Shown one piece after another: positions 1 through 20,482 of a stretch of 24,000 bases of DNA (the first letter of the stretch is position 1; each line of letters starts with the position of its first letter). The stretch is from an uncultured Clostridia bacterium (lineage in GTDB: Bacteria; Bacillota; Clostridia; Lachnospirales; CAG-274). The position numbers were made by a program, and so were the translations under genes. The stretch spans positions 5,026 to 29,025 of the forward strand of contig CALWOZ010000001.1 of NCBI GenBank assembly GCA_944383305.1, written 5' to 3'. The notes beneath the pieces were generated by a model that saw only the letters and a program-made list of their open reading frames with translations, searched no databases and was not told where the DNA came from.

Positions 1-137
1 AAATGTTAATAGAAGCAAATGGTGGTGCTAAATCAAAAGGTGGAATATCTGGAAATAGAATTAATGGCATAGGAGATAATAATAACAAGAATCTATATTT
101 AAATGAAGCTAAAAAGGAGTTTGGAGATATTGAATAA
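1..137 (+). CDS. 3' end of an ORF entering from the window edge; candidate C-terminal tip of a polymorphic (RHS-linked) toxin
   Basis: The frame is open from the window edge to TAA 135-137. The stop overlaps the next ATG (TAATG, 135-139). An immunity-like cassette and a YD-repeat stub lie directly downstream. No toxin domain is recognisable in the 44 visible residues. Confidence 0.35.
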   Translation, partial: MLIEANGGAKSKGGISGNRINGIGDNNNKNLYLNEAKKEFGDIE

Positions 138-536
138 TGAAATTAAAACTAGAAAAAAAGACTTAAATTAGGTGATATATATGAAATAGCATTACCCAAT
201 AATAAGAATGCTTATGGAAGACTATACAAAGAATGCACATTAGCTATATATAATAAACTATGTAATAATGTAGAAGAAATTCCAGAAGAAGAAAATTATA
301 AATTTTTTTGTGGAGTTTATAAGGAATTATTACAAGATGGTGAATGGAAAATTGTAGGAAATAGAGAGTTTGAAAATGAAAAAGATGCTTGGCCTCCACC
401 AACTTGTGTTGTAGATGCACTTACCGGAAAAGGTTCTATATATTATAAGGGAGAAATTATATCATCTAATTATGAAGATTGTGAAAATTTAGAAATTGCT
501 GCGGCTTGGAATAGGAACCATTTGATTAATAGATTA
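137..536 (+). pseudogene. Immunity-like gene, copy 1, with its start codon out of frame with the conserved body
   Basis: ATG 137 (GGAGAT 8 nt upstream) reads MKLKLEKKDLN and then hits TAG 170-172. The frame that is open from 153 reads KLGDIYEIALPNNKNAYGRLYKE...NYKFFCGV...KIVGNREFENEKDAWPPP, a clear paralog of 537-989. The shift maps to the A7 run at 153-159. No stop separates copy 1 from copy 2. Confidence 0.55.
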
Positions 537-989
537 ATGGGAATTAATTTATATGAAAAAAATAATTTTTTAGGAAACCCAGCAGGTAAGTTAAGACATA
601 GCAAATTTCAGTATGGAGATATATATGAAATACCATTACCAAATGGTAAAAATGCTTATGGAAGACTTTATAAAACATCTATTTTAGGAATATATGAAGG
701 GATGTATGATAGTGTGCAAGAGATACCAAAAGAAGAAAATTATAAATTTTTTTGTGGAGTTACTACAATTTTATTAAAAGATAAAGATTTAAAAATTGTA
801 GGAAATAGAAAATTTGAAAATGAGGAAGATGCTTGGGCACCTCCATTTTGTGCAATAAATATAATTGATAACAGTTGTTGTATTTATTATAAAGAAAAAT
901 TTATAAAATGTGATAAAAAAGAATGCAATGATTTACAAGTTATAACATTTTTAAATAAAGAAGAATTAATTAATAAACTGATGTTATAA
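537..989 (+). CDS. Polymorphic-toxin immunity-like protein, copy 2 (possibly Imm26-like; family name from memory only)
   Basis: This is the tracked ORF 522-989. The TTG at 522 lies inside the C-terminus of copy 1, and ATG 537 (MGINLYEKNNF) aligns with the MKLKLEKK start of copy 1. Shared motifs are GDIYEIPLPNGKNAYGRLYK, NYKFFCGV and KIVGNRKFENEEDAWAPP. It has no SD of its own. Confidence 0.6.
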   Translation: MGINLYEKNNFLGNPAGKLRHSKFQYGDIYEIPLPNGKNAYGRLYKTSILGIYEGMYDSVQEIPKEENYKFFCGVTTILLKDKDLKIVGNRKFENEEDAWAPPFCAINIIDNSCCIYYKEKFIKCDKKECNDLQVITFLNKEELINKLML

Positions 990-999
990 ATATGACCAA

Positions 1000-1635
1000 A
1001 TGTTCAATCTTAGAAAAGTTATATTGCCAAACAACATAGAAAAAGGCATAGGGACAAGTTATGAGTATGACCCATTTCATAAGCTATTAAAAACAGAAGA
1101 TGCCGAAGGCAACATATATGCAACACATAGAGATTATGAAGGGAATTTATTAAAAGAAATAGACCCAAATAGTTATGATATAAAAGCTAATGACGGTGAA
1201 GGTATATCATATGAATATGATGAATATGACAACAAAATAAAAACAATATATCCAGACGGCAGTATAGAGCGTATAAAATATGATGCTAATGGAAATGTAA
1301 TAAAAGTAATAGCACCAGAACAATATGAGGCAGATTTAGATGACGGAGCAGGGTATACATATGAATATGACTGTATGAATAGGTTGGTGCAAGTAACAGA
1401 CCAAAGATACAACATAATAAAAAGGTATGTATATGACTTAAAAGGGAATGTAATAAAAGAGATAAATGCAGATGGATATAAAACAGGGGGCAATGACGAA
1501 GAAAGAAAAGGTACTATATACAAATATAACAAAATGAACTGGCTAACAGAAAAAAGAGAGCCAGTAACAAAGACAAAATATAGACTTACAACATATGAAT
1601 ATGATTTATCAGGAAATGTTGTAAATTGTATATAA
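1000..1635 (+). CDS. RHS/YD-repeat protein fragment (orphan stub with no core end and no toxin tip; probably non-functional)
   Basis: The 211 aa consist of consecutive YD repeats (SYEYDPFHKL, RDYEGNLLKE, YEYDEYDNKI, YDANGNVIKV, YEYDCMNRLV, YDLKGNVIKE, YEYDLSGNVV). There is no SD before ATG 1000. The ORF stops right after a repeat, without a PxxxxDPxGL-type core end. Confidence 0.8.
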   Translation: MFNLRKVILPNNIEKGIGTSYEYDPFHKLLKTEDAEGNIYATHRDYEGNLLKEIDPNSYDIKANDGEGISYEYDEYDNKIKTIYPDGSIERIKYDANGNVIKVIAPEQYEADLDDGAGYTYEYDCMNRLVQVTDQRYNIIKRYVYDLKGNVIKEINADGYKTGGNDEERKGTIYKYNKMNWLTEKREPVTKTKYRLTTYEYDLSGNVVNCI

Positions 1636-1639
1636 TATG

Positions 1640-1669
1640 AGAAGATAGTTTTTGCTATCTTCTTTTTTT
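1640..1669 (+). terminator. Rho-independent terminator
   Basis: AGAAGATAG (1640-1648) pairs with CTATCTTCT (1655-1663) across a 6-nt loop. The T run extends to 1669. Confidence 0.65.
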
Positions 1670-1838
1670 ATACTCGAAATATTACATAATTTAAAACAAA
1701 AACATAATATTTTACATATTTTTACAAAAATACTAAAAAATTATGATATTATATGTATAAATAGAATTTAGAAAAATCTTGGAGTATTTATGTAAAAATG
1801 TTAATTTATATTTTTAATTTAATAATTATTTTAAAATG

Positions 1839-1875
1839 GGTAGACAGAAATTTGTTATTTGTCTACCTTTTTTTT
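1839..1875 (+). terminator. Strong rho-independent terminator with no annotated gene upstream
   Basis: GGTAGACA (1839-1846) pairs with TGTCTACC (1860-1867) across a 13-nt loop, followed by T8 (1868-1875). Confidence 0.7.
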
Positions 1876-1971
1876 ATTAAAAAACTAAAAATATATAAAA
1901 TAAGAAGTCCACCTATTTCTCTACTTAATTTTGAAAACAAAAAATTTAAGTAAAGAAATTTGGAGGAAAAA

Positions 1972-2370
1972 ATGAACAATAAAAAATATATTTATGTAAA
2001 AAAATATAAAAGCGATATTACAGAGAAGATTGAGGTAAGTGAAGAAGTTTATACTGAATATTGGAAATATACAGAAAAAGAAAAATATTTTAAAAAATAT
2101 GAAAGAAATAAAATAAGTATTGATGATATTGTTATTGATTGTAAATTTAATTTAGAAGACCATATAATAACAAAACTTATGTTAGATAAATTAAATGTAG
2201 CTTTATCTAAATTAAATGATGAAGAATTTAAAATTATAACAGATATATTTTTTAATTCAAAAACAGAAAGAGAAGTAGCAAAAGAATTTAATTGTAAATT
2301 TTATAAAGTACATACAAAAAAGATTAGCATATTAAAAAAACTAAAAAATATGTTAAAAAATGAAATATAA
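1972..2370 (+). CDS. Sigma-70 region-4 / HTH protein of the kind found next to the recombinase module of conjugative transposons
   Basis: GGAGG lies 5 nt before ATG 1972 (the tracked TTG 1960 sits inside the SD). The N-terminal IEVSEEVYTEYWKYTEKEKYF and the C-terminal LSKLNDEEFKIITDIFFNSKTEREVAKEFNCKFYKVHTKKISILKKLKN (region-4 HTH) match the ICE-associated small sigma-like proteins I recall from Tn1549/CTn-type elements. Confidence 0.7.
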   Translation: MNNKKYIYVKKYKSDITEKIEVSEEVYTEYWKYTEKEKYFKKYERNKISIDDIVIDCKFNLEDHIITKLMLDKLNVALSKLNDEEFKIITDIFFNSKTEREVAKEFNCKFYKVHTKKISILKKLKNMLKNEI

Positions 2371-2565
2371 TATAAAAAAATGTAAAGTTAAAATAAAATT
2401 TTGTTTAATATTTACAAATTTTAAACTTTAAAAAAATAATTTTTGTTGAAATTTTAAAACTTCAATATATAGTTTCATTCCTTTATATATAGAGGGATAT
2501 TTTACCTCTGTGTACATTGAAAATTGAATACACAATATAGCAAATACAAAGTTAAATAATACTAA

Positions 2566-2646
2566 AATTACTAAAGTAATTCAGTAGACTAGAATTATTA
2601 ACGTAATTCAGTAGACTATAATTGCTAAAGCAATTCAGTAGTAATG
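2566..2646 (+). repeat. Three tandem 27-nt units, each a 6-bp stem, a 4-nt loop and a CAGTAG-containing linker
   Basis: Unit 1 is AATTAC-TAAA-GTAATT-CAGTAGACTAG (2566-2592). Unit 2 is AATTAT-TAAC-GTAATT-CAGTAGACTAT (2593-2619). Unit 3 is AATTGC-TAAA-GCAATT-CAGTAGTAATG (2620-2646). Confidence 0.75.
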
Positions 2647-2697
2647 GAGCAACGCACTAAAACACGCTTGCGAATAATGTTTGTAGTGATAAGGTTT

Positions 2698-2733
2698 TAA
2701 CAATTTTTGATTATAGCATAATCAAAAATGTTA
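2698..2733. repeat. Long near-perfect palindrome / hairpin
   Basis: TTTTTGATTAT (2704-2714) and ATAATCAAAAA (2718-2728) form 11 perfect bp around the 3-nt loop AGC. The stem extends to about 16 bp with one bulge (2698-2733). No T run follows on either strand. Confidence 0.6.
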
Positions 2734-3043
2734 TAGATTGAACTAATTGCGAAGATATTTATTTAATATAATGATACTTCTACATAGTCCCAACTCATCG
2801 TAAGGAGTGTAGTCCGTCTGTAAGGGGGAAATCTGAAATGGTTATGGTTGTCTATCTAATCAATAGACCGTTTGTTATATCTTGAACATAAACAATTTTT
2901 AAATACTTTATATTCAAAAACAGATACTACTAAAATTTATTTAGATAAAATTTAATACAAAAATCCATATATAAATTTTACCTAAATAAATTAAGTTGTA
3001 CCTTAATTACAATATTAAGTAATAGAACAGGAGGAATAGGGTT

Positions 3044-3083
3044 AATAGGTTTATTATAACAAAAAAGCAATAAGCCTATTTTT
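3044..3083 (+). terminator. Possible terminator closing the non-coding block
   Basis: AATAGGTTTA (3044-3053) pairs with TAAGCCTATT (3071-3080), giving 10 bp with one G-U. The loop is 17 nt and the T run covers 3079-3083. Confidence 0.35.
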
Positions 3084-3153
3084 CCGATTGTGTTACTTAA
3101 CAGTAATATTTATATTTTGAAATACATATTATATACTTGAAGAGGTGAAAAAG

Positions 3154-3399
3154 ATGGACAACTATAAAAATTATGAAAATTACAATATAGAAAATCTTAA
3201 CAATATAAATGATACAAGGGTAAATATAAAATTACCAAAACAAGAAAGAATGCTTGATTATATAGAGCAAATAGGAAATCCTTGTTGTTATCAAGATGGA
3301 GAACGAAAAATTATCCTTACTTTTAAAGATGATTGTGAAGAAACTGAAAAAGAAAAAGAATTTTTAAGAAAATACATTAAACAATATTTAAAAATATAA
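3154..3399 (+). CDS. Small conserved protein found upstream of LSR genes in Firmicute elements (DUF6870-like, from memory)
   Basis: AGAGGTG lies 6 nt before ATG 3154 (the tracked GVG-type start GTG 3145 lies in the SD). The motif VNIKLPKQERMLDYIEQIGNPCCYQDGERKIILTF matches the remembered pattern lpkeeRi.dfi.qigNPYcf..g...V...F. Confidence 0.6.
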   Translation: MDNYKNYENYNIENLNNINDTRVNIKLPKQERMLDYIEQIGNPCCYQDGERKIILTFKDDCEETEKEKEFLRKYIKQYLKI

Positions 3400-3403
3400 A
3401 CCT

Positions 3404-3432
3404 AGACTAAAGAAGAAACTTATGTTATAATT
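3404..3432 (+). promoter_or_regulatory. Candidate sigma-A promoter for the recombinase operon
   Basis: TAGACT, a 17-nt spacer, then TATAAT with a TG at the extended -10 position (TGTTATAAT). It lies about 75 nt upstream of ATG 3508. Confidence 0.4.
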
Positions 3433-3507
3433 TCAAAAAAGGACACGATTAAATTTTTCTTTAAGCTCTAGGTATTTTTAATTAAAAAAATATTTAGGAG
3501 ATTTATT

Positions 3508-5136
3508 ATGAAGAAATATAATACAGCAATATATTTAAGGCTTTCAAAAGAAGATGAAAAGCTAGGAGAAAGCGACAGTATCATTAACCAAAAATCAATG
3601 CTTGTAGATTTTGTAAACAGTAAAGAAGATTTACACCTTGTAAAAACAATGATTGATGATGGTTATAGTGGAGGCAACTTTGAACGCCCTGCTTTTAAAG
3701 AAATGATGGAGCTTATAAAAAATAGAAAAATAAACTGTATTGTAGTGAAAGATTTTTCTAGGTTTGGGCGTGATTTTACCGAAGTAGGTAGATATTTAGA
3801 AGAAATCTTTCCGTTTATGGGAGTTAGATTTATTTCTTTAAACGATAATTATGACAGTTTAAAAAATAAAAGTGGTATAGAAAACTTGGCAATACCATTT
3901 AAAAATCTTGTAAACGATGCGTATTTGAGAGACACTTCAATTAAAATACGAAGTAGCCTTGATATTAAAAGAAAAAAAGGCGATTTTATAGGCAGTTTTG
4001 CAAGTTATGGCTATTTAAAAGACCCTAACAACAAAAATAAACTTATTGTAGATGAGATAGCTAGTAAAGTTGTGCAAGATATTTTCAAATATCGTTTACA
4101 AGGCTTTAATATAAACAAAATATCGGAAAAATTAAACAAAGAAAATGTTCTTTGTCCTATGGAATATAAAAAATCAATAGGGATAAAAGCAAGTACAAAC
4201 TTTAAGAAAAATGATAAAGCTTTATGGACACCTAAAGCTATTTTTAGGATATTAGAAAATCCTTTATACATAGGAACAACTGTTCAAAAAAAGGTAACAA
4301 CAGTAAATCATAAAGTTAAAAAACTTGTGTATGTACCGAAAGAAGAAAGAATAATAGTAGAGAATACTCACGAGCCTATCATATCAAAAGAAGTTTTTGA
4401 AATGGTGCAAAAATTAATGGAGATAGACACACGAACTGCACCAAACGAAGAAAAAATATATTTGCTTAGCGGGTTTGTTAAATGTGGCGAATGTGGTGCA
4501 AACTTAATAAGAAGAAATTATGGAACGAAAGAAAAACCGTATATTTACTATACTTGTAGCAACAAGAAAAATCAAAAAGGTTGTAAAGGTTCTAGCATTA
4601 AAGTTGAATCTTTAGAAAATATAGTTTTTAATGCCATAAAAAAGCAAATAGAAGCTACTATAACTTTAGAAGATATACTAAGCGATATAGATAGTGAAAG
4701 CTATGCAAAAACAGAAAAGCAAAAGCTAAATAAAAAAATTGAAGAAAAAGAGCAAGATTTAAAAAAATATCAACTTATAAAACTTAAAATATATGAAGAT
4801 TTAAAAATAGGACTTTTAAATGAAGAAGAATACACCGACTTTACAAAAGGTTATTCTGAAAAAATTGTACATATAAAAAATGTAATATCAGATTTAAAAA
4901 AGGAACTTGATAATGTTTTAAATGGGTTGACAGAAAAGCAACTTTGGATAGAACATTTTAAAAAGTATAATAGTATTAAGAAGTTAGATAGAGAGCTTAT
5001 TATAAGCTTGATTGAGCAAATAAAAATATATACAGATAAAACTACTGAAATACAGTTTAAATATGAAAATGAATTTAAAGATTTATTAGAATATAAACAA
5101 AGCTTAGAACAAGTGCAGGTGGCGTGCAATGGCTAG
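3508..5136 (+). CDS. Large serine recombinase, type A (A1), TnpX/TndX-like
   Basis: 542 aa. It has a resolvase-type catalytic domain (AIYLRLSKED, VKDFSRFGRD), a recombinase domain and a zinc ribbon (CGECGANL...YYTCSNKKNQKGC). A coiled-coil stretch precedes the C-terminal KLDRELIISLIEQIKIY..IQFKY tail (DUF4368-like). AGGAGA lies 6 nt before the ATG. Confidence 0.92.
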   Translation: MKKYNTAIYLRLSKEDEKLGESDSIINQKSMLVDFVNSKEDLHLVKTMIDDGYSGGNFERPAFKEMMELIKNRKINCIVVKDFSRFGRDFTEVGRYLEEIFPFMGVRFISLNDNYDSLKNKSGIENLAIPFKNLVNDAYLRDTSIKIRSSLDIKRKKGDFIGSFASYGYLKDPNNKNKLIVDEIASKVVQDIFKYRLQGFNINKISEKLNKENVLCPMEYKKSIGIKASTNFKKNDKALWTPKAIFRILENPLYIGTTVQKKVTTVNHKVKKLVYVPKEERIIVENTHEPIISKEVFEMVQKLMEIDTRTAPNEEKIYLLSGFVKCGECGANLIRRNYGTKEKPYIYYTCSNKKNQKGCKGSSIKVESLENIVFNAIKKQIEATITLEDILSDIDSESYAKTEKQKLNKKIEEKEQDLKKYQLIKLKIYEDLKIGLLNEEEYTDFTKGYSEKIVHIKNVISDLKKELDNVLNGLTEKQLWIEHFKKYNSIKKLDRELIISLIEQIKIYTDKTTEIQFKYENEFKDLLEYKQSLEQVQVACNG

Positions 5137-6793
5137 AAAAAGTAGAAAAACACCTGAAAAACAATTAACAAAAACTAATCAAAAAACTTATTCTGTTGGA
5201 GTATATGTAAGGTTATCTCTTCTTAATAACAATATGGAAGATGACAGTAGCATACAAAATCAAAAAAATATAATTTTAAATTATATAAAAAATAATGAAC
5301 AGTTTAAGCTAATCGAGATATACGAGGACAATAACTTTTCTGGGACGAACTTTAACAGAACGGCATTCCAAAAGCTTATAGAAGATGTACAAAGTGGTAA
5401 AATAAACTGTATTATAGTAAAAGATTTGTCTAGGTTTGGGCGAAATTATATTGAATGTGGCAATTATCTTGAAAAAATATTTCCGTATATAGGGGTAAGA
5501 TTTATTGCTATAAATGATAATTATGATAGCGAAAATATGAATTCTAGCGAAATTTTGATGATGCACCTTAAAAATATAATAAATCAGCTTTACGCACAAG
5601 ATATAGGCAAAAAGGTGTCAACGGCTATAAGAGCAAAACAAAAAAGGGGAGAATATGTTGGCTCTTTTCCTAATTATGGTTACAAAAAAGATGAAAAAAA
5701 TAAAAATAAACTTGTGATAAATGAAGAAACAGCACCTGTTGTAAAAATGATTTATGATTTAAAATTACAAGGTTTAGGGTATGTACAAATAGCTAGTAAA
5801 TTAAATGACCAAAACATATTATCCCCTTATGCTTATTTACATACAAAAGGTTATTTTAAAACTGATAAGTACAAAGATTTAAAATGGACACCCCTTGCAG
5901 TTAAAAGAATTTGTACAAATCAAGTGTATATAGGTAATATTGCAGAAAAGAAAAGCAACGTATATGGAGATAAAGCTAAAGATTTAGATATGGAAAAATT
6001 TATCGTTGTTAAAAATATGCACGAACCCATAGTAAGCGAAAAAGTTTTTTATAAAGTGCAACAAGTAACAGAAAATATTGCTAAAACTTTTAAACAAAAA
6101 TATGATATAAAAACAACAGAAAATATATTTAAAGGTTTAGTGAAATGTGGTAATTGTGGCAAAAATATGTACAGATTTAAACATTGTGTAAAAAATAAAA
6201 ATGGCAAAATAAATATAAGTTATGATTTTAAATGTAAAGAAATTTATGCATCAAAATGTAAAGTTGGTTCTACTAATGAAGAAACACTAAAAAGAATAGT
6301 TTTTAATCAATTAAAAACACAAATACAGTTAGTGTTAGATTTACAAGACTTAATTGTAAAAAATGATAAATTTGTATCCTATGAAGAACATTTACTTAAA
6401 AATACATTACAAAATCTACACAGTGAAATAACAAAAATTAAAAATTTTCAAAAGACTATATACGAAGATTATTGTACAGGTTTATTAGATGAAGAAGATT
6501 ATTTATTTACAAAAGCTAATTATATAGAAAAAGAAAATGAATTAAATTTACAAAAAGAAAATATCCAAAACAAACTTTTTGATTTAAAAAATACATTAAA
6601 CAAGGAAAATGAATATATAAAACAGTTTTTAAAATTTAAAAACTATAAATTTTTAACTAGGGAATTGTTACAAACTTTAATAGAAAAAATAGTTATACAT
6701 AATGACAAAAGCATAGAAATATTCTTTAAATATGAAAATGAGTATAAGCGTATACTTAATGAAATAGAAAGGGTTTCTAAAAATGCAGTATAA
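5129..6793 (+). CDS. Large serine recombinase, type B (B1)
   Basis: 554 aa. Motifs are VGVYVRLS, VKDLSRFGRN, the zinc ribbon CGNCGKNM...C..C and the tail LTRELLQTLIEKIVIH..IEIFFKY. ATG 5129 overlaps the A1 stop by 8 nt, with an AGGTGG SD upstream. Confidence 0.92.
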   Translation: MARKSRKTPEKQLTKTNQKTYSVGVYVRLSLLNNNMEDDSSIQNQKNIILNYIKNNEQFKLIEIYEDNNFSGTNFNRTAFQKLIEDVQSGKINCIIVKDLSRFGRNYIECGNYLEKIFPYIGVRFIAINDNYDSENMNSSEILMMHLKNIINQLYAQDIGKKVSTAIRAKQKRGEYVGSFPNYGYKKDEKNKNKLVINEETAPVVKMIYDLKLQGLGYVQIASKLNDQNILSPYAYLHTKGYFKTDKYKDLKWTPLAVKRICTNQVYIGNIAEKKSNVYGDKAKDLDMEKFIVVKNMHEPIVSEKVFYKVQQVTENIAKTFKQKYDIKTTENIFKGLVKCGNCGKNMYRFKHCVKNKNGKINISYDFKCKEIYASKCKVGSTNEETLKRIVFNQLKTQIQLVLDLQDLIVKNDKFVSYEEHLLKNTLQNLHSEITKIKNFQKTIYEDYCTGLLDEEDYLFTKANYIEKENELNLQKENIQNKLFDLKNTLNKENEYIKQFLKFKNYKFLTRELLQTLIEKIVIHNDKSIEIFFKYENEYKRILNEIERVSKNAV

Positions 6794-8306
6794 AATAGCT
6801 GTTTATACTAGAATTTCTATTAAAGATAAAAAGTGTAACGATGAAACACAAAGTATAAAAAATCAAAGAGATATTATAGAAAATTTTATAAAAAATAATA
6901 GTGATATTTGTTCAAGTGATATTTTCTATTATAGCGATGAAGGTTATTCTGGCAGAACATTTAAACGACCATATTTTGAAAAATTAATAGAAGATGCAAA
7001 AAAAGGTAAGATAAATTGCATTATAGTAAAGGATTTATCAAGGTTTGGGCGTGATTATATAGAGGTAAATACTTATTTAGATAAAGTTTTTCCATTCTTG
7101 AATGTAAGGTTTATATCTATAAATGATAATTATGACAGTAATAACAACAAAAATAAAACATTAGAATTAGATGTATCTTTCAAAAATTTACTCTATAATT
7201 ATTATAGCAAAGATTTATCTAACAAAGTAATAACAGGTATAAAAAATAAAGCTAGACAGGGAGAATACATAAGAATTAACGTACCTTTTGGATATAAGAA
7301 AAATAGTGAAACAAAAAAGGTTGAAATAGATGAAGAAACAGCACCTATTGTTAAAATGATATTTGAAATGGTGGCAGAAGGTAAAACATTTTCGGAGGTT
7401 TGTGATTTTCTAAATAAAAATAAAATTCCAACTAGAAGTGAATTTAAAATGAAAAATGGAGCAGTTAAAAACTATCCTCATTTAAAACAAAATAAAATTT
7501 GGAGAAACTTTGATTTAATATCAATGCTACAAAATGAAATATATATGGGAACTTTAGTTTTATTTAAAACTAAAAAGCTAAAATGTGGACACAGAAAAAG
7601 AATAAAATCTGATGAAGATGAAGTTATTGTAAAGGAAAATATATATCCACCAATAATATCAGAAGAGCTATTTTTTAAAGTTAATGCCAATAGAAAAAAA
7701 TATGCTCCTACTAGAGATATTAAAAATATATTTGCATACAAATTAAAATGCGGGCATTGTGGCTATGCATTAAAAAATACAGAGTTAAAAAAACATAATG
7801 AAGTTTTTGATAAAAAATACTACTGTAATAGTAAAAATGAATTGTATATAAAAAATTGCAAAAATACTCACATAAAAGAAAGTGAGCTAAAAAGAATAGT
7901 CTTTAACAGTTTTAGAAATGAAATATTGTTAAGATTAGAAGAAGATGAGCTAAAATCAAATTTGTTAAATTTAAAAACAGATTTAAAAAAATTAAGCAAG
8001 GAAGTGAATAATTTAAAAAGTGAAAAAAGAAATTTATATGAAATTTACTTAAATCAACAAATAAGTAAAGATGAGTATGTAATCCAAAAAAATGAAAAAG
8101 AAATATCTATACAAAATACACAAAAGCAAATACAGTTATTACAAGAAGAAATATTTGCACTTGAAAATATAACTGATGAGAATAAATTGTTTGAAAAATA
8201 TATAAAATCTAGTGAACTTACTAGAGAAATGGTTGAAGCTTTCGTTGATTGTATTTATCTGTATGATGATGCAGTAAATATAAAATGGAGCTTTAAAAAA
8301 ATATAA
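6783..8306 (+). CDS. Large serine recombinase, type C (C1)
   Basis: 507 aa. Motifs are IAVYTRIS, VKDLSRFGRD, CGHCGYAL...C...C and the tail LTREMVEAFVDCIYLY. It overlaps B1 by 11 nt. Confidence 0.9.
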   Translation: MQYKIAVYTRISIKDKKCNDETQSIKNQRDIIENFIKNNSDICSSDIFYYSDEGYSGRTFKRPYFEKLIEDAKKGKINCIIVKDLSRFGRDYIEVNTYLDKVFPFLNVRFISINDNYDSNNNKNKTLELDVSFKNLLYNYYSKDLSNKVITGIKNKARQGEYIRINVPFGYKKNSETKKVEIDEETAPIVKMIFEMVAEGKTFSEVCDFLNKNKIPTRSEFKMKNGAVKNYPHLKQNKIWRNFDLISMLQNEIYMGTLVLFKTKKLKCGHRKRIKSDEDEVIVKENIYPPIISEELFFKVNANRKKYAPTRDIKNIFAYKLKCGHCGYALKNTELKKHNEVFDKKYYCNSKNELYIKNCKNTHIKESELKRIVFNSFRNEILLRLEEDELKSNLLNLKTDLKKLSKEVNNLKSEKRNLYEIYLNQQISKDEYVIQKNEKEISIQNTQKQIQLLQEEIFALENITDENKLFEKYIKSSELTREMVEAFVDCIYLYDDAVNIKWSFKKI

Positions 8307-8324
8307 AAATTTTTATGTCCTTTA

Positions 8325-9503
8325 TTGACAATACCTTATTTAAGAGATATATCATTGAAAATTAGAAGTAGCTTTGATATTAAAAGAAAAAATGGAGATT
8401 TTATAGGCTCTTTTGCAACTTATGGATATTTAAAAGACCCTAATAATAAAAATAAGCTTATTGTAGATGAAGTTGCATCTAAAGTAGTTAAAGAAATTTT
8501 TAAATATAAATTGTGTGGATTAAGCGCTGATAAAATAGCTAAAAAACTAAATGAAAACGGTATATTATCTCCTATGGAATATAAAAAATCAATAGGATTA
8601 AACTTTAATACAGGATTTAAGAAAAGAGCAAAGTGTATTTGGAGTGCTAAAGCTATTTTTCGTATATTAGAAAATCCTATATATATTGGAACACTTGAAC
8701 AAAATAAGGTTACTACACCTAATCATAAGATTAAAAAAATAATTAATGTACCAAAAGAAGAACGTATAATAGTAGAAAATAACCACCAGCCTATTATAGA
8801 AAAAGATATTTTTGAAAATGTACAAAGACTAATGTTATTAGATACAAGAATAGCACCTAATAAGGAACAATTATATTTATTAAGTGGTATTATAAACTGT
8901 TTAGAATGTGGATCTAATTTAGTAAGAAAAAATAATGGAACTAAAGATAAGCCATATATTTATTATATTTGTAATAATGCAAAAAATAAAAAAGGTTGTG
9001 TTGGGGCTAATATTAAAGAAAATATATTAGAAAATATAATTTTTGAAGTTATAAAAAGCCATATAAACAGTATTATAAATTTAGAAAAAATAATAAATAT
9101 AATAAACAACTTACCTTATACAACAAGAGAAATTAAAAAATTTAACAAAATGATTAACACTAAAAAAGAAGAATTATTAAAATATAAAAATATTAAACTA
9201 AAAATATATGAAGATTTAAAAAGTGGATTATTAACTCAAGAAGAATATAGAGAATTTGTTGACTTATATACCAATAGAATAAAAGAAAATGAAAGTTTAA
9301 TATTAAAATTTGAAAAAGAAATAAAAATACTATTAGACAAATCAAGCCCTAACCAATTATGGATACAACATTTTAAAAAATATAAAAATATACAAAAATT
9401 AGACAGAGAAATAGTTGTAAATTTAATTGAAAAAATAGAAGTAAATAAAAATAAAGTAATAAATATTCATTTTAAATATAAAGATGAATTAGCACTAAAA
9501 TAA
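8325..9503 (+). CDS. N-terminally truncated type-A large serine recombinase paralog (dA2) lacking the catalytic domain; probable remnant
   Basis: The intact 392-codon ORF aligns with A1 from about residue 148 onward (YLRDISLKIRSSFDIKRKNGDFIGSFATYGYLKDPNNKNKLIVDE versus YLRDTSIKIRSSLDIKRKKGDFIGSFASYGYLKDPNNKNKLIVDE). The recombinase domain, zinc ribbon, coiled coil and tail are retained. The catalytic-Ser and SRFGR motifs are absent. It has only a TTG start and no SD. Confidence 0.8.
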   Translation: MTIPYLRDISLKIRSSFDIKRKNGDFIGSFATYGYLKDPNNKNKLIVDEVASKVVKEIFKYKLCGLSADKIAKKLNENGILSPMEYKKSIGLNFNTGFKKRAKCIWSAKAIFRILENPIYIGTLEQNKVTTPNHKIKKIINVPKEERIIVENNHQPIIEKDIFENVQRLMLLDTRIAPNKEQLYLLSGIINCLECGSNLVRKNNGTKDKPYIYYICNNAKNKKGCVGANIKENILENIIFEVIKSHINSIINLEKIINIINNLPYTTREIKKFNKMINTKKEELLKYKNIKLKIYEDLKSGLLTQEEYREFVDLYTNRIKENESLILKFEKEIKILLDKSSPNQLWIQHFKKYKNIQKLDREIVVNLIEKIEVNKNKVINIHFKYKDELALK

Positions 9504-9513
9504 TAGGTGACTA

Positions 9514-11094
9514 ATGGCTAGAAAAAGTAGAAAAAATTTAAAAGAAATTAAATTTATAACAAATAAGGAAATATACAATGTAGGAATTTATTTAAGAATA
9601 TCTGTACTTGACAAAGAAGATACAGATACAATAGAAAATCAAAAAAATATAATTTTAGATTATATAAAAGATAAAGAAGAATTTAAGTTAGTTGAAATTT
9701 ATGAAGATAGTAATAAAACTGGTACAAACTTTAACAGAGGTGGATTTAAAAATCTTTTAGAAGATATAAAAATTGGTAAAATAAATTGTATAATAGTAAA
9801 GGATTTATCACGTTTTGGAAGAAACTATATTGAATGTGGAAATTATCTTGAAAAAATATTTCCATTTATGAATATAAGATTTATAGCTATAAATGATAAT
9901 TATGATAGTAAAAATGAAAATTCTAGCGAAATATTAATAATGCACTTAAAAAATATCGTAAATGAAATTTATGCTAAAGATATTTCAAAAAAGGTTAGTA
10001 CAGTATTTAGAGAAAAACAAAAAAGAGGAGAGTTTATAGGAACTTGGGCAAGTTATGGATATTTAAAAAGTCCTAATAATAAAAATAAGCTTATAATTAA
10101 TGAAGAAACCTGTCATATTGTTAAAGAAATTTTTAATTTAAGACTAGAAGGATATAGTTATAATAAAATAGCTTTATTTTTAAATCAAAAAAATATTTTA
10201 TCACCATATGCTTATTTATATAGTAAAGGATTTATTAAAAATACTAGATTTAAAGATACTAAATGGCTTGAAACAACAGTAAAAAAAATATTATCAAATG
10301 AAATTTATATAGGTAATTTAGTCCAAAGAAAATATAAAACTATATCAAATAGAAAAAGAGAAAAAAACAATATAGAAGATTATATTATTGTTGAAAATAC
10401 ACACCAACCTATAATTTCAAAAGAAACTTTTTATAAAGTTCAAGAGATAAATAAAAAAAGTAGACAAATATATTATAATAAAAATAAAAAAACTAAGTCT
10501 AATGAAAACATATTTAAAAAATATATAAAATGTGGCGAATGTGGTAAAAATTTAATAAAAAGACAAAAAGAGAGTAATTATATATATACTTTTTTTGAAT
10601 GTAAATCTCATAGGATAAATGGGTGTAAATTTACTACTATTAAAGCCCATTATGTTGAAGAAATAGTATTTAATCAAATAAAAAATCAAATAGAAATTAA
10701 TATAAATTTAAAAAGTATATTAAATAAAAATAGTACTTATTTAGAAGAAAATATATTAAATAATAAGATTGAAAATATGGAAAAAGAACTTATAAAAATA
10801 AAAGACTTTTATAAAATAATATATGAAGATTACATAAATAAAACTCTATCACAAGAAGAATATATTTTTAATAAAAATTCATATTTGCAAAAAGAAAAAG
10901 TTTTATTAAAAAAGAAACAATTATTAGAAATAGAACTAATAAATATAAAAAATAGTTTAAATATACAAAACAAATGTTTAAAAGAATTTTTTGAACTTAA
11001 AAAATTAACAAGAGAATTAATAGAAATTTTAATAAAAGAAATTGTTATATCTAAAGATAAAACTATAAAAATATATTTTAATTATAAAAATTAA
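9514..11094 (+). CDS. Large serine recombinase, type B paralog (B2)
   Basis: 526 aa. It begins MARKSRK like B1. Motifs are VGIYLRIS, VKDLSRFGRNYIECGNYLEKIFPF (near-identical to B1), CGECGKNL...C....C and the tail LTRELIEILIKEIVIS..IKIYFNY. Confidence 0.9.
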   Translation: MARKSRKNLKEIKFITNKEIYNVGIYLRISVLDKEDTDTIENQKNIILDYIKDKEEFKLVEIYEDSNKTGTNFNRGGFKNLLEDIKIGKINCIIVKDLSRFGRNYIECGNYLEKIFPFMNIRFIAINDNYDSKNENSSEILIMHLKNIVNEIYAKDISKKVSTVFREKQKRGEFIGTWASYGYLKSPNNKNKLIINEETCHIVKEIFNLRLEGYSYNKIALFLNQKNILSPYAYLYSKGFIKNTRFKDTKWLETTVKKILSNEIYIGNLVQRKYKTISNRKREKNNIEDYIIVENTHQPIISKETFYKVQEINKKSRQIYYNKNKKTKSNENIFKKYIKCGECGKNLIKRQKESNYIYTFFECKSHRINGCKFTTIKAHYVEEIVFNQIKNQIEININLKSILNKNSTYLEENILNNKIENMEKELIKIKDFYKIIYEDYINKTLSQEEYIFNKNSYLQKEKVLLKKKQLLEIELINIKNSLNIQNKCLKEFFELKKLTRELIEILIKEIVISKDKTIKIYFNYKN

Positions 11095-11116
11095 TAATTG
11101 AAAGTTAAATAGGTTG

Positions 11117-11165
11117 TATACTGTTTAGATTTAGTTATTTTTTAACCTACACTAAAAACAGTATA
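11117..11165. repeat. Perfect 10-bp inverted repeat separated by 29 bp, at the end of the recombinase array
   Basis: TATACTGTTT (11117-11126) is the reverse complement of AAACAGTATA (11156-11165). No T run follows, so it is not a typical terminator. Confidence 0.6.
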
Positions 11166-11166
11166 A

Positions 11167-11206
11167 TAAAAGAGTTAATTTTTAATATATAAAAATTAAC
11201 TCTTTT
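11167..11206. terminator. Bidirectional terminator between B2 and the convergent symporter gene
   Basis: AAAAGAGTTAATTTTT (11167-11182) pairs with AAAAATTAACTCTTTT (11191-11206), giving 16 perfect bp and an 8-nt loop. A/T runs are built into both arms. Confidence 0.75.
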
Positions 11207-11225
11207 ATTATTAATTTCAATTAAT

Positions 11226-12587
11226 TTATTTAATTTGTCTTTTATAAATTTCCTCATTTAAATTATTTTCAGATTTAGAAACAATTAAAGCGGTTCCAGC
11301 ATCACCAACTACGTTTAAAGCAGTTACTAACATATCCATAGGTCTATTAATAGCAATAATTAAAGAGTATGCTATTAAGCTGGCTTCATTATTATATCCC
11401 ATAGCAGTTAGTATGGAGAATAAGATAATTGTTGAAGAACCAGGAATAGATGGAGTTCCAATAGATGCCATTAGTGCTAAAAATGAAATTAAAATAATAT
11501 TAAAAAAAGTTACATTATATCCAGCACTAGATGCAATAAACACCGTTGCTATAACCTGCATTATGGCAGTTCCGTTCATATTAACTGTCATACCTAATGG
11601 AAGGGTAAAAGATATTATCTCTTTATTAATTCCTAACTCCTCTTCACAAGTTTTTTCATTTAAAGACAAAGCAGCAGCAGAAGAGGCAGCAGAAACACCT
11701 AAAAGGGCAACTTTACTTATTTTTTTAATAAAAATAAAAGGATTTAGTTTTGTTTTAATATAAATATAGCTTGGATATCCTAAAATAAAAAATATAACAC
11801 AGCCTATTGTTGTAACTAACATATATGAAATAGCAGGTTTTAAGTGTTCTATACCATATATAGCAAATGTTCTCGAAATAAGGATAAAAATAGCAATAGG
11901 ACTAAATTTATTAATAATAAAGCTTAAAAATTCAGAAACTATACTATTAACATCTTCTAAAACATTTTTTATAACTAATATTTTATCATCTAATTTATTT
12001 ATACAAATACCTGTTATAATAGCTAAAAATACTATTGAAAGAACTCTAGAGTTTGTTGTAAAAACACTTAAAAAGTTATTAGGTACTGCGTCTAAAATAA
12101 TCATTAAAGGATTTGAACTAGAACTAGTAGCTTCAGAAGAAGAAATACCATTTATTTCAACTTTAAACATACTTAAATTATCTGCAATTAATCCTAAAAC
12201 ACAAGCTAAAGCTAAAGCTAATATATACATAATAAGAAAGTTAGAAACAGTCTTACCAGCTATTCTACCAAACTTTTTAGTATCTTTAATTTGACACATA
12301 GAAAGTGCTATTGAAGAAAATATTAAAGGAACAATAACAAGTTGTAACGAGTTTATAAAAAGTTGTCCTAAAATATAAAATAGTCCAATACTATTTGTAC
12401 CTTCGGCTACACTTATATCTTGAAATAAAATATTATTTATTATATCCCAAATATAAGAATAATCAGACTTTAATAAACTTTCTCTTAAAAACATAAAAAT
12501 AAGACCAACTATAACACCAAAACTTAAGGCTATACCCATTTTTTTAGCTAAAGTTTTGGGTTTTTTATTTTTTATATTATCTGACAT
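11226..12587 (-). CDS. Dicarboxylate/amino acid:cation symporter (DAACS/SDF family)
   Basis: 453 aa and polytopic. Family motifs are SSAAALSLNEK, GMTVNMNGTAIMQ, IPGSSTI and NVVGDAGTALIV. A GGGGGT SD lies 8 nt before the ATG. Confidence 0.85.
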   Translation of the reverse strand: MSDNIKNKKPKTLAKKMGIALSFGVIVGLIFMFLRESLLKSDYSYIWDIINNILFQDISVAEGTNSIGLFYILGQLFINSLQLVIVPLIFSSIALSMCQIKDTKKFGRIAGKTVSNFLIMYILALALACVLGLIADNLSMFKVEINGISSSEATSSSSNPLMIILDAVPNNFLSVFTTNSRVLSIVFLAIITGICINKLDDKILVIKNVLEDVNSIVSEFLSFIINKFSPIAIFILISRTFAIYGIEHLKPAISYMLVTTIGCVIFFILGYPSYIYIKTKLNPFIFIKKISKVALLGVSAASSAAALSLNEKTCEEELGINKEIISFTLPLGMTVNMNGTAIMQVIATVFIASSAGYNVTFFNIILISFLALMASIGTPSIPGSSTIILFSILTAMGYNNEASLIAYSLIIAINRPMDMLVTALNVVGDAGTALIVSKSENNLNEEIYKRQIK

Positions 12588-12629
12588 TAAATATTACCCC
12601 CTTTAAAATACATATTATTACAAATTAAT

Positions 12630-12658
12630 AGTATATTTATAAAATTAGACTTTGTCAA
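12630..12658 (-). promoter_or_regulatory. Candidate sigma-A promoter of the symporter gene
   Basis: On the minus strand, TTGACA (12658-12653), a 17-nt spacer, then TATACT (12635-12630). Confidence 0.5.
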
Positions 12659-12678
12659 GAATATAATTATTTAAAATG

Positions 12679-13566
12679 TTATAATGAAGAAGGATTTTTC
12701 TTTATGTATTCTAAAAATTTTTGTATAGCAGGTGGAAAGTATCTATTTTTTACATAAGCAAGGTATATATATCTTTTATAATTAAGTTCTTTAACTTTTA
12801 TTTGTTTAATATTATTATTTTTTAGTAAAGGTGTTTTTCCAACTAAAGCTATTCCAAAATTTTCAGCAACTAATCCTAATATAGCGTGTTCATTTTCTCC
12901 CTCAAATATAATATTTGGATTAATATTGTTATCATTAAATATTTTACAGGTTAGTTGACCTAATCCACTTTCTTTAAAATAAATAATAACATTATATTTT
13001 TCTATTTCTTTAATACTTATTTCTTTTTTGTCAGAAAGAGGGTGATTTTTGGGAACTATTAATACTAACTCTTGTTCTATTATAGGTTCAAAAATAATAT
13101 TTTCTTCGTTTTCCATATAGGAGCAAAACCCTAAATCATATTTTGAATTTTTAAGTCCCTCTATAATTTGTGAGGTTAATTCTTGTTTAAAAGAAAAAGA
13201 AATATTTTTATTTTCATTTTGGTCTAAAAAATTTCTAACTATTTTTGGTATATAAGAAGGAGCCAATGGGAATACATATGCTATATCTATATTTCCTCCT
13301 TTATTATTTGTTAAAGTTTTAATTTTATTTATACCAACTTCTAGTGTTTCTAAAGAACTTTCAACATATTCTAAAAATATTTTTCCATACTTTGTTAATT
13401 TTACATTTCTTCCTTGCTTTTCAAAAAGTTTTATTCCTAACTCATCTTCTAAGTTAGCCATAGATGCACTAAGACTAGGTTGAGATACATTTAATTTTTC
13501 TGATGCTATTCTAAAATGTTGTAAATTTGCAATTGTTTTAAAATAATAAAGTTGATTTAGATTCAT
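12679..13566 (-). CDS. LysR-family transcriptional regulator
   Basis: The N-terminal wHTH is MNLNQLYYFKTIANLQHFRIASEKLNVSQPSLSASMANLEDELGIKLFEKQGRNVKLT, followed by a substrate-binding fold. GGAGG lies 5 nt before ATG 13566 (the tracked TTG 13578 lies in the SD). It is divergent from the aroD operon. Confidence 0.9.
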   Translation of the reverse strand: MNLNQLYYFKTIANLQHFRIASEKLNVSQPSLSASMANLEDELGIKLFEKQGRNVKLTKYGKIFLEYVESSLETLEVGINKIKTLTNNKGGNIDIAYVFPLAPSYIPKIVRNFLDQNENKNISFSFKQELTSQIIEGLKNSKYDLGFCSYMENEENIIFEPIIEQELVLIVPKNHPLSDKKEISIKEIEKYNVIIYFKESGLGQLTCKIFNDNNINPNIIFEGENEHAILGLVAENFGIALVGKTPLLKNNNIKQIKVKELNYKRYIYLAYVKNRYFPPAIQKFLEYIKKNPSSL

Positions 13567-13607
13567 AAAAACCTCCAAAATAATTCAATAAATATATTAT
13601 AACAATA

Positions 13608-13659
13608 TTAATAAATAAAATCTATCAATTTATTAAAAAAATAGTATTAGATTTATTAA
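13608..13659. promoter_or_regulatory. Candidate LysR-type operator in the divergent intergenic region
   Basis: TTAATAAAT (13608-13616), N11, then ATTTATTAA (13628-13636) form a perfect 9-bp inverted repeat. A third ATTTATTAA half-site lies at 13651-13659, just upstream of TATAAT at 13666-13671. Confidence 0.4.
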
Positions 13660-13747
13660 AATGACTATAATATAATTAAAGAAAGTTAATCTATTAACAA
13701 ACAAAGTTTACTTTATATTAAATATTTTTTATCTTAAGGAGAATTTT

Positions 13748-14512
13748 ATGCAAAAATATATTCAAGTTAGAAATGTTAAAATTGGAGAGGGTATACCTAA
13801 AATTTGTGTACCTTTAGTTGCAAAAAACAAACAAGCATTTTTAGATATGGCAAAAGAATTAGAAAATATAAAATTAGATTTAGTTGAACTTAGAATAGAC
13901 CACTTTGAAGAAGTTGAAAACTTAGATAAAGTAAAAGAATTAGCAAAAGATTTAAGACAAGTTTTAAACGAAACTCCTATTCTTTTTACATTTAGAAGTC
14001 TTAAAGAGGGTGGAGAAAAAGAGGTAAGTGTAGAATATTATAAAAAGTTAAACATTGAAATGGCTAAAACAGGATATGTTGATTTAATAGACGTTGAACT
14101 TTTTACAGGTGATGAAATTGTTAAAGAAATAGTTTTAGAAGCTCATAATGTTAATGTAAAAGTTGTTATGTCTAATCACGATTTTGATAAAACACCAGAA
14201 AAAGATGAAATTGTTAAAAGACTTTGCAAAATGCAAGAATTAAATGCAGATTTACCTAAAATCGCAGTTATGCCTAAATCTACAACAGATGTTTTAACTC
14301 TTCTTTGTGCTACAGACCATATGGTTACAAAATATGCTAAAACACCAATTATTACAATGTCTATGGCTGGACTTGGCGTTATAAGTAGATTAGCAGGAGA
14401 AACATTTGGATCTGCATTAACATTTGGTGCAGCTAAGGTTTCATCTGCTCCAGGACAAGTAGAAGTTAATAAATTATCAGAAATTCTTGAAGTTTTACAC
14501 AATAGTAGATAG
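13748..14512 (+). CDS. aroD: 3-dehydroquinate dehydratase, type I
   Basis: 254 aa. Type I hallmarks are ELRIDHF, MSNHDFDKTP (catalytic His region), PKIAVMPKS (Schiff-base Lys) and ITMSMAGLGVISRL. An AAGGAG SD is present. Confidence 0.92.
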   Translation: MQKYIQVRNVKIGEGIPKICVPLVAKNKQAFLDMAKELENIKLDLVELRIDHFEEVENLDKVKELAKDLRQVLNETPILFTFRSLKEGGEKEVSVEYYKKLNIEMAKTGYVDLIDVELFTGDEIVKEIVLEAHNVNVKVVMSNHDFDKTPEKDEIVKRLCKMQELNADLPKIAVMPKSTTDVLTLLCATDHMVTKYAKTPIITMSMAGLGVISRLAGETFGSALTFGAAKVSSAPGQVEVNKLSEILEVLHNSR

Positions 14513-14579
14513 TTTATTATTATAAAAATTAATATTTATAAATATAATTAAATTTTTTATTTATTAGGAGGAAAAAATT

Positions 14580-15455: not shown

Positions 15456-15476
15456 TAACAACCTTTGGAGGCAAAA

Positions 15477-16682: not shown

Positions 16683-16867
16683 ATAATAGCTTGTATTATA
16701 TTCCTAATATTTTTCAATCCAAAAATTAAAATAAAAGCTGTTTACAATTTTTGGACTGAATAACTAAATAATAGAAGTTTAAATTGTTGCCTTCGTTTTT
16801 TGACGAAGGTAATAATTTACTCAAAATATGAATTTTTTAATAAAATTAAAAGTAAGGAGCATTTATA

Positions 16868-18862: not shown

Positions 18863-18885
18863 TTTTATAAATTTATATTTAAAAT

Positions 18886-18925
18886 AAAGAAGATAGATTA
18901 ATTTAAAATTTATCTTCTTTATTTT
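18886..18925 (+). terminator. Terminator of the aroD-to-reductase operon
   Basis: AAAGAAGATA (18886-18895) pairs with TATCTTCTTT (18911-18920) across a 15-nt loop. TTTT follows at 18922-18925. Confidence 0.6.
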
Positions 18926-18971
18926 ATAATTAAAATAATTTATTTTATTAATAATTTTAAGGTATATACTG

Positions 18972-19286
18972 ACACTATCTTGGAATGAAAAGGGTGGATA
19001 TAGAATAGGTATCAAATCTAAAAATGGTAATTATTATTATTATGCACATTTAGATAGCTATGAACAAGGTATTGAAAAAGGAAAAGAAATATCAGCAGGA
19101 GATACTTTAGGATATATGGGCAATACTGGATATAGCAAAGCAGAGGGAACTAAAGGTAACTTTGAGGTACATTTACATATGGGCATAGAAGTGGAAACAA
19201 GCCTTACAAAAAATGAACTTTGGATAAATCCATATCCATTTTTAAGTTTAATAGAAAATAGTCAAAAAAATAGTAGTGAAAAGTAA
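18972..19286 (+). pseudogene. 5'-truncated M23 (LytM-type) metallopeptidase gene remnant
   Basis: The frame reads LSWNEKGGYRIGIKSKNGNYYYYAHLDSYEQGIEKGKEISAGDTLGYMGNTGYSKAEGTKGNFEVHLHMGIE...NPYPFL, ending at TAA 19284-19286. It keeps the YAHL and HLH motifs. It has no start codon and no upstream HxxxD motif. In-frame sequence upstream of about 18970 is AT-rich non-coding and reaches a stop at 18936. Confidence 0.65.
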
Positions 19287-19353
19287 TAAGTTATTATTTA
19301 AATATTTAATACTAAAAAATTAAAAATATTTTACAAAATAATATATTTTAGTA

Positions 19354-20477: not shown

Positions 20478-20482
20478 ATTTA

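Follow-up and report, generated by a model that had tools for sequence, protein, structure and literature searches.

The DNA analysed here, called the window throughout, is a stretch of 24,000 nucleotides (nt) from an uncultured Clostridia bacterium (assembly GCA_944383305.1, contig CALWOZ010000001.1) and is very AT-rich, with a G+C content of about 18-33%. Its positions 3508-11094 carry five open reading frames (ORFs) for large serine recombinases (LSRs), all on the forward strand, which are designated A1, B1, C1, dA2 and B2 and are listed with the other features in Table 1. The first three are assigned below to an integrative element, e1, and the last two to a second element, e2. The ORF list of the window returned the five genes at the coordinates given in an earlier note on this DNA, along with the overlaps and the 18-nt gap between C1 and dA2 described there; the gap between dA2 and B2 is 10 nt. 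The overlaps of A1 with B1 and of B1 with C1 suggest translational coupling.

Table 1. Features of the window (position 1 is its first nucleotide)
Feature	Position	Strand	Remarks
e1 right-hand cargo	1-3507	+	e1 left end outside window
Imm26-like	522-989	+	Pfam
RHS-repeat fragment	1000-1635	+	Pfam
Sigma-70 region-4-like	1960-2370	+	Pfam
pemK RNA motif	2768-2847	+	Rfam RF02913, 42.1 bits against a gathering score of 34.8
DUF6870	3145-3399	+	Pfam
A1	3508-5136	+	e1 internal-position LSR, 542 amino acids (aa), catalytic Ser present
B1	5129-6793	+	e1 middle-position LSR, 554 aa; 8-nt overlap with A1
C1	6783-8306	+	e1 external-position LSR, 507 aa; 11-nt overlap with B1
e1 right-end attachment (P) arm	8313-8336	+	terminal inverted repeat TTATGTCCT 8313-8321; TTGACA 8325-8330
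dA2, listed ORF	8325-9503	+	TTG start; genuine A2 sequence is 8337-9503 (codons ~138 to end), remnant e2
Crossover core TAT	8337-8339	+	common to attL, attR, attB and reconstructed attP; central dinucleotide TA by symmetry
B2	9514-11094	+	e2 middle-type LSR, 526 aa, catalytic Ser present, own AGGTGA ribosome-binding site
Spacer	11095-11225	.	between B2 and SDF transporter gene; ends with SDF terminator hairpin
Chromosomal flank	11226-24000	mixed	Pfam, Rfam; gene order matches e1-free L109

Pfam analysis revealed Resolvase, Recombinase and Zn_ribbon_recom domains in A1, B1, C1 and B2 (E 1e-6 to 1e-26), the N-terminal Resolvase domain (PF00239) having E values of 2e-18 to 1e-23. The Recombinase domain (PF07508) is followed by the zinc ribbon (PF13408) in all five ORFs. 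dA2 is made up of Recombinase, Zn_ribbon_recom and DUF4368, and Pfam detected no Resolvase catalytic domain in it. The catalytic Ser contexts YLRLS, YVRLS, YTRIS and YLRIS as well as SRFGR are visible in the four full-length LSRs, and among solved structures the TnpX catalytic domain (2mhc, E 3e-24) comes closest to A1. The TnpX-type label of the earlier note, and its claim that catalytic Ser, SRFGR and zinc ribbon are kept, were thereby borne out. Scores for the DUF4368-like tail it described were mixed against the cut-off of 25 bits: dA2 passes with 31.8, A1 (22.8) and B1 (24.3) fall just under it, and Pfam gave no match for C1 or B2. A1 and dA2 share 59% identity across 386 aa; their alignment begins at A1 residue 138 (134 counting four element-derived codons) and not near residue 148, as had been estimated. 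B1 and B2 align from a common MARKSRK start through their full length with 49.7% identity, which agrees with the earlier alignment, and the remaining LSR pairs are 27-43% identical. By tblastn, the window contains no additional piece of a recombinase gene: neither a second C gene or C fragment, as already noted before, nor an A2 N-terminus.

Recombinase triplets of this kind form a conserved module. A scan at one genome per species yielded 72 loci, more than 20 of which have three tightly packed LSR genes in the same order. We constructed a neighbour-joining tree of 34 proteins, with columns limited to those present in dA2 and 200 bootstraps. First-position (A) and third-position (C) proteins each formed a clade in 200/200 replicates, and the second-position (B) proteins grouped in 75/200 with one distant member included. 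dA2 joined the intact A of contig L004 in 200/200 replicates, and B2 fell among the B proteins. The tree upheld three position-specific LSR clades with A1/dA2 and B1/B2 paired, a division named beforehand as the test of the idea.

A1, B1 and C1 are adjacent, co-directional LSR genes at the extremity of e1, which ends 33 nt after C1 at a TAT core; this TAT is also the Tyr-138 codon of A2. Past the C1 stop the DNA reads AAATTTTTATGTCCTTTATTGACAATACCT-TAT-TTAAGAGATATATCA. The arm that precedes the core is unique in the window and had 0 matches in shuffled sequences. The TTG listed as the start of dA2 (8325) is the TTG of the TTGACA in the e1 arm, and it has no ribosome-binding site. This start sits in the e1 end, and dA2 is the 3' half of a split gene and not a short gene. 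In another metagenome-assembled genome (L007), B1 (99% aa identity) and C1 (100%) are followed by identical sequence up to TAT, and behind the junction lie a different truncated A (66% aa identity to dA2), a different B (61%) and a C. The identical C1 protein is present on 9 contigs from several samples, and in every resolvable contig a truncated A lies behind the exact C1. An exact-protein look-up found no record of the A1 protein, and look-ups of this type aimed at the DNA left of the window yielded contigs of 3 kb only.

The same chromosomal position is found without e1 in L109, L110 and L111, which carry the closest B2 relative (85% aa identity). There the order is Lon, GTPase, DUF6715, a 206-aa ORF, an intact A2, B2 and SDF-LysR-aroD-aroE(-MFS). 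Window positions 8337-16688 correspond to L109 5243-13611 with 93.6% identity, and the blastn alignment starts exactly at the TAT. The L109 A2 frame extends upstream through IDRFKTSLYLRLSKEDEK and therefore includes the catalytic serine region. Intact A2 orthologues of L004 and L109 are 90% and 89% identical (aa) to dA2, respectively, so that an always-short dA2, the second outcome that the earlier note named as refuting, was not seen. Both the single-triplet versions and the empty site for which the earlier note proposed to look were found.

The other half of the split gene, together with the left end of e1, is represented on other contigs. Among the numerous truncated proteins that a search with the A2-type N-terminus brought up, six end in ...NLINDxY followed by ESAIIGHN*, DSAIIGHN* or DNDIIGHN* (the asterisk is the stop). 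The tail pattern at this left junction is ...NDxY + [ED][SN][AD]IIGHN*, for example ...NDSY + ESAIIGHN*. As the A parts of the six are merely 62-81% identical to one another, six different A genes are broken at one codon. At the DNA level, the A sequence of L093-L096 runs as far as TAT and is followed by GAAAGTGCTATAATAGGACATAA, after which come parA, parB and one more gene; the segment directly after TAT and before parA-parB is GAAAGTGCTATAATAGGACATAATTAAAAAACC. L096 is 92.9% identical to the L109 A2 region up to TAT.

A four-way comparison defined the sites at base resolution. The unoccupied attB is ...AATGATTCA TAT TTAAGGGATATATC..., attL is ...AATGACTCA TAT GAAAGTGCTATAATAGGAC... and attR is ...GACAATACCT TAT TTAAGAGATATATC..., and the reconstructed attP of 50 bp is TTATGTCCTTTATTGACAATACCT-TA-TGAAAGTGCTATAATAGGACATAA. 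The reconstructed attP has a perfect 9-nt terminal inverted repeat, TTATGTCCT/AGGACATAA, centred on TA, and a hand comparison found 15/24 positions of its arms symmetric around TA. The attP joint reads TTGACAATACCTTATGAAAGTGCTATAATAGG, and the attB restored by excision would read AATGAYTCATATTTAAGAGATATATC. The left half of attL and the right half of attR together make up the uninterrupted A2 of L109/L004, and joining the two A2 halves restores a continuous reading frame.

Taken together, these data make it highly probable that the array marks the place where two nested integrative elements meet, with e1 and its full triplet inserted in the A2 gene of a decayed relative, e2. Of the two explanations offered in the earlier note, insertion into the A gene of an older element is the one retained; stacking with partial deletion applies only insofar as the older element was also partly deleted. 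According to the nested-element reading, e1, with A1-B1-C1 at its right end, is integrated at the TAT of Tyr-138, in the C-terminal part of the A2 Resolvase domain. A2 is thereby split into an N-terminal piece outside the window, fused to eight e1 codons (ESAIIGHN*), and dA2. From the genomic products attL, attR and empty attB, A1, B1 and C1 are predicted to catalyse the attP x attB reaction with a 2-nt staggered cut at the central TA, and excision would be expected to rebuild A2. The conserved ...NLINDSY|LRDIS... segment of A-type genes (the bar marks the break) may be a recurrent landing site for the family of e1.

Several points weigh against this reading. No single contig spans e1 from end to end; what ties the parA end to the A1-B1-C1 end is the inverted repeat, together with the complementary position of the break and contigs of relatives. 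Among the latter, the complete genome L016 has parA-parB and the triplet about 9 kb apart, and in L010 the LSR end adjoins the parA end of a related element (ParA 84% identical). For the exact e1, neither a circular junction nor a restored site came to light, and exact arm patterns gave no match in two scans of JGI metagenomes and one of viral contigs, so that we infer the activity of e1 from its distribution only. In the fetched loci the attP joint was absent and the left-arm pattern occurred only in L093-L096. The central dinucleotide, read as TA or AT, is palindromic, and LSRs normally take their polarity from an asymmetric dinucleotide. A 90%-identical relative of e1 (L001, L097) resides in an S8-peptidase gene. 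The left-junction survey was seeded with an A-gene query and cannot give the target spectrum of e1-like elements. Lastly, the promoter proposed below for the joined ends is a prediction from sequence, and a generic promoter scan is uninformative in DNA this AT-rich.

Other explanations of the array were weighed against the same evidence. The co-directional, closely spaced arrangement of the five genes, the intact ORFs of dA2 and B2 with dN/dS (the ratio of non-synonymous to synonymous substitution rates) of 0.2-0.4 against relatives, and the recurrence of the five-gene order on several contigs could be taken for a fixed functional operon, in which a naturally short dA2 and B2 serve as accessory subunits of A1-B1-C1. 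Those contigs, however, are one lineage and 98% identical, lone triplets occur in many loci, dA2 lacks a ribosome-binding site and has a 'start' made of element-end sequence, and its dN/dS reflects divergence that mostly predates the insertion. The intact A2 without e1 in the same chromosomal position of L109 largely refutes an operon of this kind, which we consider very improbable; the five-gene order is not fixed, as the earlier note had also presumed. The dN/dS ratios failed as an arbiter between the models, all values lying at 0.1-0.4 (A1 against its L001 orthologue, 0.135) and the divergence being mostly older than the insertion.

Tandem accretion of related elements is well known, and e2 is clearly deleted, with no cargo, C2 or right end. 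Both facts would suit a tandem integration at one chromosomal site with later random deletion of the 5' part of A2 and of the intervening ends. Such a history would not lead one to expect the same Tyr codon break in eight different A alleles or an intact inverted-repeat arm of e1 at the junction, and it leaves unexplained the complementary A N-terminus fused to the other arm of the element; it is hardly credible. The C1|dA2 junction might also be an assembly chimera of similar recombinase genes, as paralogues are 65-80% identical in DNA in patches and several contigs break near recombinase genes. The junction, however, recurs in at least 8 contigs that stem from different samples and were built by different assemblers (ENA, NCBI, Logan), and it lies in non-homologous arm sequence and not in a shared stretch. 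In addition, one Logan contig, L074, is 100% identical to window 9885-20703. A chimera is thus extremely unlikely.

The choice of target leaves more room. LSRs of the DUF4368/TndX-like type are typically multi-targeting (Durrant et al. 2022, PMC10083194), and A2 could have been a chance secondary site for such a loosely specific element, without any preference for recombinase genes. The S8-peptidase half-site used by the 90%-identical relative matches the A-gene half-site at 13/21 positions by hand alignment, and other family members occupy amidase-like and other genes. A chance site is possible but doubtful, given that eight different A alleles were struck at the same codon, that all resolvable copies with the exact C1 sit in A genes, and that two other types of element interrupt A-type genes nearby. 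One of these, in L101, has a single 679-aa LSR and breaks the gene at ...KNLM|; the other, in L068, is a more distant, G+C-richer parA-parB element that breaks it at ...RFIAI|. A further point is that TTTAAAAATYTWATWAATGATnnn-TAT-TTAAGRGATATWTC is conserved in the A genes of many triplets, whereas A genes of the inserting clade (window A1, L001, L080, L097) have GTRAAYGATGCR-TAT-TTGAGAGAYACTTCA instead. They differ from the target at 3-4 positions of the right half-site, including an Ile-to-Thr change, and these differences might protect the element from itself.

We tentatively propose, without holding it to be the likelier course, that triplet-LSR/ParAB elements of AT-rich Clostridia evolved to use the ...NLINDSY|LRDIS... 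segment of A-type genes as attB. If this were so, any resident relative, even a decayed two-gene remnant, would be a landing pad and would lose its own A recombinase while occupied. With a palindromic TA, the polarity of integration would then have to come from different paralogues binding asymmetric arms, which would be a concrete reason for needing several LSRs.

Interruption of LSR and other genes was also seen elsewhere. The S8 peptidase gene is interrupted twice (L097 2242-13624, L100 1812-8803), and in L100 its 5' part encodes a CspB prodomain. A small element with a 133-aa ORF, a relaxase, DUF6870 and a decayed A-type LSR makes up one interruption; the second, in L097, is an additional full A-B-C element, and L001 uses the same S8 target. 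The 173-aa truncated A proteins (P0008 type), considered as a second hot spot, turned out to be decayed A genes of the small relaxase-bearing element in the S8 gene. Widespread A-type LSR fragments (P0063-P0104) all end in ...AIADWLNG* at about residue 216, for example P0082, of 216 aa, on 124 contigs of which the longest has 175,904 bp; P0022 and P0100 are fragments from different positions that both end in IGRAHV*. Such fragments may point to additional sites at which LSR genes are recurrently interrupted. Just downstream of the last LSR in L006, L036, L041, L046, L048 and L052, which include single-LSR and triplet elements, lies a sequence encoding a GHGG-D-G motif (CAGGACACGGCGG...). We take this motif to be typical of amidase genes, and its position suggests that distant LSRs share one target.

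The ends of e1 and its relatives carry the two parts of a putative promoter. TTGACA stands exactly 6 nt before the crossover in the right arms of e1 in the window, L001, L006, L007e2, L011 and L034 (TTGACA-N6-[T/G]A), and CTTGACA is found just past the last LSR gene in several more loci. The left arms of L093/L096, L010, L016, L068 and the L109 remnant carry TGNTATAAT. When the ends of e1 are joined in silico, the sequence becomes TTGACA-ATACCTTATGAAAGTGC-TATAAT, with a 17-nt spacer and an extended -10 (TGC before the -10), pointing into parA; the spacer is also 17 nt with the arms of L011 and L010. Thus the -35 is at one end and the -10 at the other, correctly spaced only when the ends are joined. 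The right-arm TTGACA and the left-arm TGCTATAAT may therefore form a promoter that fires into parA-parB in the excised circle. This predicted promoter does not drive the LSR genes, which lie upstream of it. A hybrid promoter for dA2-B2 at the integrated right junction (TTGACA-17-TATATC) was considered and rejected: the second of its hexamers is a poor one, and the scan turned up more sites in shuffled sequences. In L093 (~1830-1890), between the left-arm TATAAT and parA, a hairpin AGGACATAATTAAAA...TTTTAATTGTGTCCT is followed by a T run; it includes the terminal inverted repeat and looks like a terminator or attenuator.

The element interrupted by e1 is a decayed remnant consisting of a left-arm motif, about 200 nt and A2-B2; it lacks cargo, a C gene and a recognisable right end. 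In L109 the left-arm motif GTGATATAATAGGACTTAATTAAAA lies about 200 nt upstream of A2 and cuts the 206-aa ORF, which then ends ...VVENIG|CLSDIIGLN*. A reading of this ORF as an M23 peptidase was dropped, as it had the HTGTD motif alone and Pfam finds nothing. The DNA on the right-hand side of B2 contains neither a C gene nor a TTGACA arm, and the 3' half of the 206-aa ORF is also absent from it. Local alignments of the sequence after B2 to B/C boundaries and C ends were no better than those of shuffles, giving no sign of a C2 remnant there. C2 was probably lost from e2, since all close B2 relatives on sufficiently long contigs belong to triplets. The remnant adjoins the SDF transporter gene in at least 2 related genomes. 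In this lineage the A2 frame appears to start IDRFKTSLYLRLS, 7 nt after AGGAGG, and ATA takes the place of the ATG of relatives (L109 4880-4935; L004 9989-10010). Owing to the ATA start, gene callers begin at an internal Met and miss the catalytic serine, and A2 may already have been poorly expressed before e1 arrived. L105-L108, in which parA lies beside a chromosomal decarboxylase gene in the same samples, were considered as the left end of e2 and withdrawn, because the supporting 12-nt match at 11159-11170 is not significant (28/300 shuffles) and L109 shows e2 without cargo.

Several known systems resemble e1. Tn4451/Tn4453 (TnpX) and Tn5397 (TndX) of clostridia belong to the same LSR subfamily and have a 2-nt crossover, and the DUF4368-type tail, above the Pfam cut-off in dA2, may be a further common trait; they use a single recombinase. 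The crossover dinucleotide of TnpX and TndX is GA, as it is in several relatives of e1, whereas the core of e1 is the palindromic TA. The joined ends of the Tn4451 circle, as Lyras and Rood reportedly found (2000, cited in PMC13023037), create a promoter; that one drives tnpX, and the one predicted here points away from the LSRs into parA-parB. In ccrAB of SCCmec more than one LSR paralogue lies side by side, and the paralogues are assumed to act together; unlike e1, that system has two genes and not three, targets the host rlmH (orfX) and belongs to a different LSR subfamily.

Serine-integrase triplets of streptococcal integrative and conjugative elements (ICEs) have internal, middle and external paralogues that cluster by position, and they insert inside protein-coding genes with 2-8 bp repeats, one target being traG of another ICE remnant (Ambroset et al. 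2016, PMC4701971). e1 shares with them three adjacent co-directional LSRs at one extremity, position clades and insertion in a coding gene (here with a 3-nt TAT core). It differs in that it sits in a related element's internal-position recombinase gene, parA-parB lies at the far end, no conjugation module is seen in the DNA available here, and the hosts are very AT-rich uncultured Clostridia. Relaxase, coupling protein and VirB4 were found neither in the window nor in the 10 kb upstream in L080, and a plasmid-database search with A1-C1 gave weak streptococcal matches only. LSR-bearing elements inside an LSR-bearing element are also described for Tn6103 of C. difficile, which, in the passages covered of Brouwer et al. 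2011 (PMC3158075), nests Tn6104, Tn6105 and Tn6106; Tn6105 has two LSR genes, and Tn6104 was shown to have a 2-bp repeat and a circular form. The same passages place the nested insertions in ORFs 1743 and 1776 and do not state their products; in the present locus the gene that is split encodes the recombinase, and the codon at which it breaks is a recurrent one. Like the gene-intervening elements of spore formers, skin in sigK and gin in gerE (PMC5595907), e1 is an LSR element that interrupts an ORF whose frame is restored by joining the flanks, and its relatives interrupt S8 peptidase and amidase-like genes. Unlike in skin and gin, the interrupted gene is a mobile-element recombinase and not a host developmental gene, and nothing suggests programmed excision.

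LSR triplets, nested elements, short-core LSR integration and joint promoters are thus already known. The use of a recombinase gene as recurrent landing site appears to be new, and so does an att pair defined for a triplet. A limited full-text search found no description of a recombinase gene as recurrent attB, of a full att set for a triplet or of a palindromic core, although an earlier description is possible. The question why two or three serine recombinases are needed by some integrative elements has been hard to test, as the attachment sites of triplets are poorly defined. The present locus offers attL, attR, a natural unoccupied attB and a reconstructed 50-bp attP along with three intact paralogues, and close variants with other targets (S8 peptidase gene) are also available. 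The subunit requirement, arm recognition and control of orientation at a palindromic core therefore become directly testable. Use of one element's recombinase gene as the landing site of another would be a simple route to composite elements and to silencing of the resident. The split promoter in attP, if real, would add a triplet-LSR case to the circular-form switches known from Tn4451 and Tn916.

Genes of mobile type lie upstream of the array and chromosomal genes downstream, which places the array at the right edge of mobile DNA running off the left of the window. The remark in the earlier note that there is almost no cargo therefore applies to the older remnant e2 only, as e1 runs left beyond the window and carries cargo. 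The sister contig L080 is 98.4% identical from window 2643 onward; left of that point (L080 1-5859) its cargo differs from window 1-2642 and consists of an N6/N4 methyltransferase, a PDDEXK protein and a ResIII/DEAD restriction endonuclease. The pemK RNA motif, also within e1, occupies the gap that precedes the DUF6870 gene, and no pemK gene is close by.

L010, mentioned above, departs from a simple end joint only by an inversion. Compared with the uninverted triplet of L011 (5466-7970), the segment L010 12297-14800, comprising the 3' part of B and C, is inverted, one end point being a TA site near codon 228 of gene B and the other the junction of the element ends. L010 looks like a circular or plasmid-like form after secondary recombination inside the recombinase gene.

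On the chromosomal side, the spacer after B2 contains about 59 extra nt (~11104-11162) that are absent from L109 and present in diverged form in L080; this segment carries a 10-bp perfect inverted repeat, TATACTGTTT/AAACAGTATA. The flank encodes an SDF symporter (-), LysR (-), aroD, aroE, MFS, an OYE/pyridine-nucleotide oxidoreductase, a class-II aldolase (-) and signal peptidase II. A full-length T-box leader (RF00230, 144.7 bits) was detected at 22791-23017 (+), and the ORF after 23000 lies downstream of it.

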